Shown: positions 41,134 to 41,589 of the stretch, in pieces | How the letters are laid out: every line of letters starts with the position of its first letter | Position numbering within the stretch: the first letter of the stretch is position 1 | Source of the DNA: a phage | Sequence record: PZ386965.1 | Length of the DNA: 64,000 bases | Direction: 5' to 3' (one strand) | Notes under the pieces: generated by a model | Database searches by the model: none | The model's input: only the letters and a program-made list of their open reading frames with translations | Told to the model about the DNA's origin: nothing | Program-made: the position numbers and the translations under genes

Positions 41134-41589
41134 TTATTTTAGATCTTCGGCCCAATCTAGTTTTAAGGGTTCTTTGTATTCACGGTCGAGAATAACCGGA
41201 ATAGCTACATCACCACTGAATGATAGTTGGCCAACGTTATATGATAACGTTATATGTGGAGTGTAGTCGTCGAAATCATGAGTAGCACCTAAAGCCCGTG
41301 CATACTGATGACGACATCTAAGATATTCGGAATCAAGAACTAAAACCAGTACAGCGCCGTCGTCAGTTTTCCATACCTCAAAGTGTCCTGATTCGGCAAT
41401 AGAATAACTACCACTAGACGTAGTATATGGTATGTTTACACGTGAATAACAAATTGTTGAATGAAGCTTTTCACGTGGTACTGGATTAGGAATTCTTAAT
41501 TTACGCTGGAGGTCTTCCAGCGCATCAAGTGTTAATTCTGAAAACTTAGCTGCGACGTAGAGGCCTTGTGAAAAGTCCTCAAATTTCAT
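41134..41589 (-). CDS. 57B: gp57B, 2H-phosphoesterase (Acb1 anti-CBASS cyclic-nucleotide nuclease)
   Basis: 151 aa; two H-x-T/S motifs (HSTICYS, HITLSY); position before 57A; T4 57B is the described Acb1. Confidence 0.8.

Follow-up and report, generated by a model that had tools for sequence, protein, structure and literature searches.

A gene 57B orthologue in a Mosigvirus-like phage that probably encodes the anti-CBASS phosphodiesterase Acb1

The stretch of phage DNA analysed here, referred to below as the window, comprises 64,000 nucleotides (PZ386965.1). In the list of its open reading frames, a frame on the minus strand at 41134..41589 encodes a protein of 151 amino acids, with an ATG start and a TAA stop; it is referred to here as acb1 (gene 57B). 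It lies within a run of minus-strand genes that follow the gene order of T4, comprising gp2, the DNA end protector (43299..44120; phrog_429), gp3 (42612..43202; phrog_45, tail tube), gene 1, encoding the dNMP kinase (41824..42558; PF21448), and, directly upstream of acb1, gene 57A, encoding the tail-fibre chaperone (41589..41819; PF17594 GP57, 5.9e-23; phrog_1002). On the downstream side, at a distance of 77 bp, is ipI, the gene for internal protein I (40769..41056, minus; PF11634 IPI_T4, 1.3e-50; phrog_4363), and beyond it are ORFs resembling trna.4, trna.3 and trna.2 (39863..40719, minus; phrog_1692, phrog_1411 and phrog_2023), arranged in the order of T4 trna.2-.4. The order gene 1, 57A, 57B, ipI is that of T4, F2 and HX01. 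As the best DNA matches of the window are Mosigvirus HX01 and its relatives, at ~97% over 11 kb, the phage is RB69/HX01-like, that is Mosigvirus-like, and not T4.

IpI is known to inhibit the GmrS/GmrD restriction enzyme, and its gene also adjoins acb1 in T4 (Hobbs et al., PMC9117128). Thus, acb1 and ipI may be regarded as a small anti-defence island. It had been proposed, in a sequence-only reading of this DNA, that gene 57B is co-located with the internal-protein genes; this holds for ipI, which is adjacent, but for ipI alone, the other ORFs of internal-protein type lying 11-13 kb away. No homologues of T4 ipII and ipIII were found in the window. The more distant ORFs, of 109, 104 and 93 amino acids (28424..28753, 28779..29093 and 29898..30179, minus), flank denV and start with MKTYxEF, which is the N-terminus of IpI and the capsid-targeting sequence of T4. 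The three have no match in Pfam and are probably injected internal proteins of an alternative kind.

Several other features of this part of the window can be set beside their T4 counterparts. A 216-amino-acid ORF (44117..44767, minus) is inserted between gp2 and gp4, the head closure gene; it has weak matches to GIY-YIG SegE and NUMOD3 and shares 35-54% identity with homing endonucleases annotated as Seg-type. This ORF is absent from the gp2-gp4 position in T4 and in phage F2, whereas HX01 has an annotated homing endonuclease there, and copies of at least 99% identity occur in only 6 phage records, p000v being one example. The gp4 ORF itself (44769..45362, minus) encodes 197 amino acids versus the 150 annotated in T4 and HX01, and this longer N-terminus may reflect an upstream in-frame start. 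Pfam assigns it a TnsA-like endonuclease N-terminal domain (E = 1.1e-19), consistent with a nuclease fold in this head-completion protein. At 39610..39766 (minus) there are just two tRNA genes, Arg-TCT and Met-CAT, lying directly next to one another. The corresponding T4 cluster comprises eight tRNAs together with segB and two small stable RNAs, and in phage F2 the Arg-TCT and Met-CAT tRNAs are ~800 bp apart.

The TAA stop codon of 57A and the ATG of acb1 have one base in common (TAATG). This overlap suggests that 57A and acb1 are co-transcribed, probably in a single transcription unit with gene 1, and the same arrangement suggests that translation of acb1 is coupled to that of 57A. The spacer between acb1 and ipI (41085..41119, minus) contains a promoter-like element, GTTTACA-17-TACTAT (41119 to 41091), overlapping a hairpin (41111 to 41085) with a 12-bp stem, AGGAUGAUGGUG / UACUAUCAUCCU, and a fold z of -3.5. 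Conservation of the GTTTACA-17-TACTAT element extends to T4, F2 and HX01. T4 has a 13-bp hairpin (z = -4.4) at this position whose stem differs in sequence, so it seems that the structure has been kept rather than the sequence. No U-tract follows the spacer hairpin, and the element and hairpin may serve as a promoter, as a stabiliser of the mRNA 3'-end or as a processing site. A match to the T4 late-promoter consensus, TATAAATA, is present inside gene 1, upstream of 57A (42174..42181, minus). However, this consensus is not enriched in the window, where 9 sites are found versus 7.8 expected by chance, and the site is therefore not evidence of a promoter by itself. Neither are sigma-70-like promoter matches enriched in the acb1 region (11 versus 9.5 in shuffles).

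The reading that drew attention to the ORF had pointed to HSTICYS and HITLSY as its paired catalytic motifs, and both are indeed present in the 151-residue minus-strand translation. HSTICYS occupies residues 43-49 (41443..41463, minus), with H43 and T45 equivalent to T4 H44 and T46, and HITLSY occupies residues 112-117 (41239..41256, minus), with H112 and T114 equivalent to T4 H113 and T115. The codons, read by hand, are CAT-TCA-ACA for H43 to T45 and CAT-ATA-ACG for H112 to T114. The motifs had been described as HxT/S; the pair is as claimed, but both members are strictly HxT, matching the published HxT/HxT tetrad. In a scan of the 64,000-nucleotide window, two loose H-x-[TS] motifs spaced 40-110 amino acids apart were found in 4 of the 112 ORFs of at least 90 amino acids, whereas two strict motifs of the form H-(small/hydrophobic)-[TS]-hydrophobic were found in the acb1 ORF alone. 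By itself, the motif pair is suggestive as a pointer to Acb1. The decisive evidence for the predicted identity is homology across the whole protein, as given by the Pfam Acb1 family and PDB entry 7T26.

The acb1 protein is 85% identical to T4 gp57B/Acb1 (NP_049750.1, from NC_000866), with 22 substitutions. Its Pfam match is to PF23474 (Anti-CBASS protein Acb1), with E = 1.8e-58 and 196.8 bits against a cut-off of 27 bits, residues 8-149 covering profile positions 1-144 of 144. NCBIfam holds no model that matches the protein. Of all PDB sequences, the best match comes from Erwinia phage FBB1, whose Acb1 (7T26/7T27) gives E = 7.9e-59, the 7T26 alignment showing 63% identity over 141 columns and spanning residues 9-148 of the window protein; the sole other match is 9Q2G, a distant phage 2H phosphodiesterase termed PDE-9 (E = 0.008). 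The identity and E value to the solved 7T26 structure support a predicted 2H phosphoesterase fold. A single-sequence AlphaFold2 model of the protein reached a pLDDT of only 38.4 and a pTM of 0.31, and the fold assignment is therefore based on the identity in sequence to the crystallised FBB1 protein. The earlier identification of the gene as 57B/Acb1 was borne out by the likeness to T4, the full-length Pfam match, the 7T26 match and the T4 gene position, and on these comparisons the ORF is the orthologue of T4 57B/Acb1.

Much is known of the T4 and FBB1 proteins. T4 gp57B was purified by tracking a 3'3'-cGAMP-cleaving activity and then named Acb1, and T4 lacking acb1 is sensitised to CBASS (Hobbs et al. 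2022, PMC9117128). Cleavage of AMP-containing cyclic di- and trinucleotides without metal, together with CBASS rescue, is known for T4 Acb1 and 9 further homologues, and the reaction proceeds via a cyclic phosphate (PMC9117128). In its crystal structure, FBB1 Acb1 adopts the 2H phosphoesterase fold, and a lid at the C-terminus (residues 145-152) shuts over the ligand (PMC9117128); a published study has found that the lid is required for activity. Y12, W74, F107 and W147 stack on the bases, E141 contacts the adenine N6, and H44, T46, H113 and T115 form the catalytic HxT/HxT tetrad, the H44A/H113A protein being inactive (PMC9117128).

In the alignment with T4, all of these residues are retained. 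Y11, W73, F106, W146 and E140 of the window protein are identical to T4 Y12, W74, F107, W147 and E141, and H43, T45, H112 and T114 are identical to the tetrads of both T4 and FBB1. The lid, LDWAEDLK at residues 144-151 (41137..41160, minus), includes W146, the equivalent of T4 W147, and shares 7 of its 8 residues with LDWADDLK at T4 residues 145-152. Y11, H43, T45, H112, T114 and E140 are furthermore invariant in an alignment of 11 homologues of 34-85% identity from 9 lineages, drawn from Tequatrovirus, Winklervirus, Jiaodavirus, Tegunavirus, Hadassahvirus, Krischvirus, Biquartavirus and Slopekvirus, along with a Vibrio phage and a Stenotrophomonas phage. Substitution of a catalytic histidine had been singled out beforehand as the finding that would count against Acb1; H43 and H112 are unchanged in all 11 homologues, down to 34% identity. 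The dN/dS ratio is ~0.07 versus T4, 0.08 versus CHI14 and 0.06 versus TG1 by the Nei-Gojobori method, a rough ratio with dS near saturation, but selection on acb1 is clearly purifying.

We conclude, with high confidence, that the ORF encodes Acb1, predicted to be a small metal-independent 2H phosphodiesterase that would counter CBASS. By analogy with the T4 and FBB1 work, the protein would bind the cyclic di- and trinucleotides containing AMP that CBASS cyclases produce, with Y11, W73, F106 and W146 expected to stack on the bases and E140 to read the adenine N6, while the C-terminal lid would shut over the bound ligand. H43/T45 and H112/T114 would then provide acid-base catalysis as the 2'-OH of the adenosine attacks the 3'-5' bond, presumably giving a linear product by way of a 2',3'-cyclic phosphate intermediate. 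With its signal linearised, the CBASS effector would not be triggered and the phage would escape abortive infection. The chemistry, substrate range and anti-CBASS effect in this scheme are carried over by homology to a gene whose reading frame, motifs, orthology, residues, selection and synteny are seen here.

Acb1 is one of the founding members of the phage enzymes that destroy second messengers of host immunity. An intact acb1 would be expected to equip this phage for CBASS evasion. A homologue of T4 vs.4, the Acb2 cyclic-nucleotide sponge, is also present in the window (26582..26821, minus), ~14 kb from acb1; it has 69% identity and a match to Pfam PF24729 Acb2_Tad1_hairpin (E = 4.7e-18). 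The phage thus appears, as judged by homology, to have the two anti-CBASS proteins known from T4, Acb1 and Acb2. In T4, published data place expression of 57B mainly in the middle and late periods, and the gene has been reported to be dispensable on E. coli K-12 and depleted on a CBASS host (bioRxiv 10.1101/2025.11.20.689424). T4 Acb1 also carries a liability, as it degrades 2'3'-c-di-AMP as well, which triggers the Panoptes decoy system.

Homologues of acb1 were detected by tblastn in 1,490 of 50,697 phage records. Copies of at least 99% identity are found in 119 phage records, with Shigella phage SSE1 among the 100% matches; the exact protein is already present in public genomes, and the gene is already known and well characterised. 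Among E. coli T-even phages there are two allele classes, one comprising the 153 records with at least 95% identity to the window gene and the other, of T4 type, the 568 records at 80-90%. It is conceivable, but very unlikely, that the Mosigvirus-type allele, ~15% diverged from T4 and found in ~150 records, has a tuned range, with less cleavage of 2'3'-c-di-AMP or cA3, that lets it evade Panoptes-type decoys and nonetheless defeat CBASS. In that case the two T-even allele classes would mirror different defence pressures.

A more general form of this proposal, that the ORF is an Acb1 orthologue with a substrate range shifted from that of T4 (sparing 2'3'-c-di-AMP, for example) or else a decaying, inactive copy, is judged highly improbable. 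The 22 substitutions relative to T4 and the existence of the two allele classes (153 versus 568 records) leave room for such a change, and PDE-9 provides a precedent for a shifted range, with specificity mapping to the enzyme core and not to the lid. PDE-9 is, however, far more distant, with E = 0.008 to the window protein, and the named ligand-contact and catalytic residues are all identical to those of T4. Decay is further opposed by the strong purifying selection and by an intact ORF that is identical across many independent isolates; a pseudogene was rejected in view of the intact ORF, the conserved residues and the low dN/dS.

Identical public proteins mostly carry the label "hypothetical protein" or "RNA ligase", the latter being also the description of phrog_755 and the name used in many RefSeq records. 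PF13563, the LigT-type Pfam family 2_5_RNA_ligase2, does match the window protein, but only at residues 69-131 and with 16.1 bits against a cut-off of 27 bits (E = 0.012). That the protein is a LigT-like 2'-5' RNA ligase, or an RNA 2',3'-cyclic phosphodiesterase with RNA ends as its substrate, for instance in tRNA repair, is scarcely tenable, for the phrog_755 and RefSeq names, the weak Pfam match and a 2H fold common to LigT are set against a partial, sub-threshold LigT score as compared with the full-length Acb1 score of 196.8 bits, a T4 orthologue that was purified through its cGAMP cleavage and whose deletion sensitises T4 to CBASS, and the conservation of the cyclic-dinucleotide-binding residues and lid. 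The RNA ligase identity was rejected on the Pfam scores, and the label is a misnomer that looks like a carry-over from similarity at the level of the fold. The gain for annotation is that the gene should be named acb1, encoding an anti-CBASS 2H phosphodiesterase, instead of "RNA ligase".

Among known systems, the LigT / 2'-5' RNA ligase superfamily (PF13563) shares the 2H fold with its paired HxT/S motifs but acts on RNA ends, not cyclic oligonucleotides, and the match of the window protein to its profile is below threshold. PDE-9 (PDB 9Q2G, deposited as 'Anti-CBASS protein Acb1') belongs to the same 2H fold group and cleaves 3'3'-cGAMP; its sequence match to the window protein is marginal (E = 0.008), its lid is N-terminal, in contrast to the C-terminal lid of Acb1, and it cleaves 2'3'-c-di-AMP poorly. 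FBB1 Acb1 is much closer. The Y, H, T, H, T, E and W residues are identical, W73 and F106 are replaced by Phe and Tyr, respectively, both of which are aromatic swaps, and the β-hairpin after residue 78 carries a one-residue indel. T4 Acb1 has the same length except for one extra N-terminal Met, and the 22 substitutions that separate it from the window protein all spare the residues named as functional. The overlap between 57A and acb1 differs, being 1 nt (TAATG) in the window and 4 nt (ATGA) in T4, and the window genome is Mosigvirus-like, but the placement of acb1 between 57A and ipI is shared.
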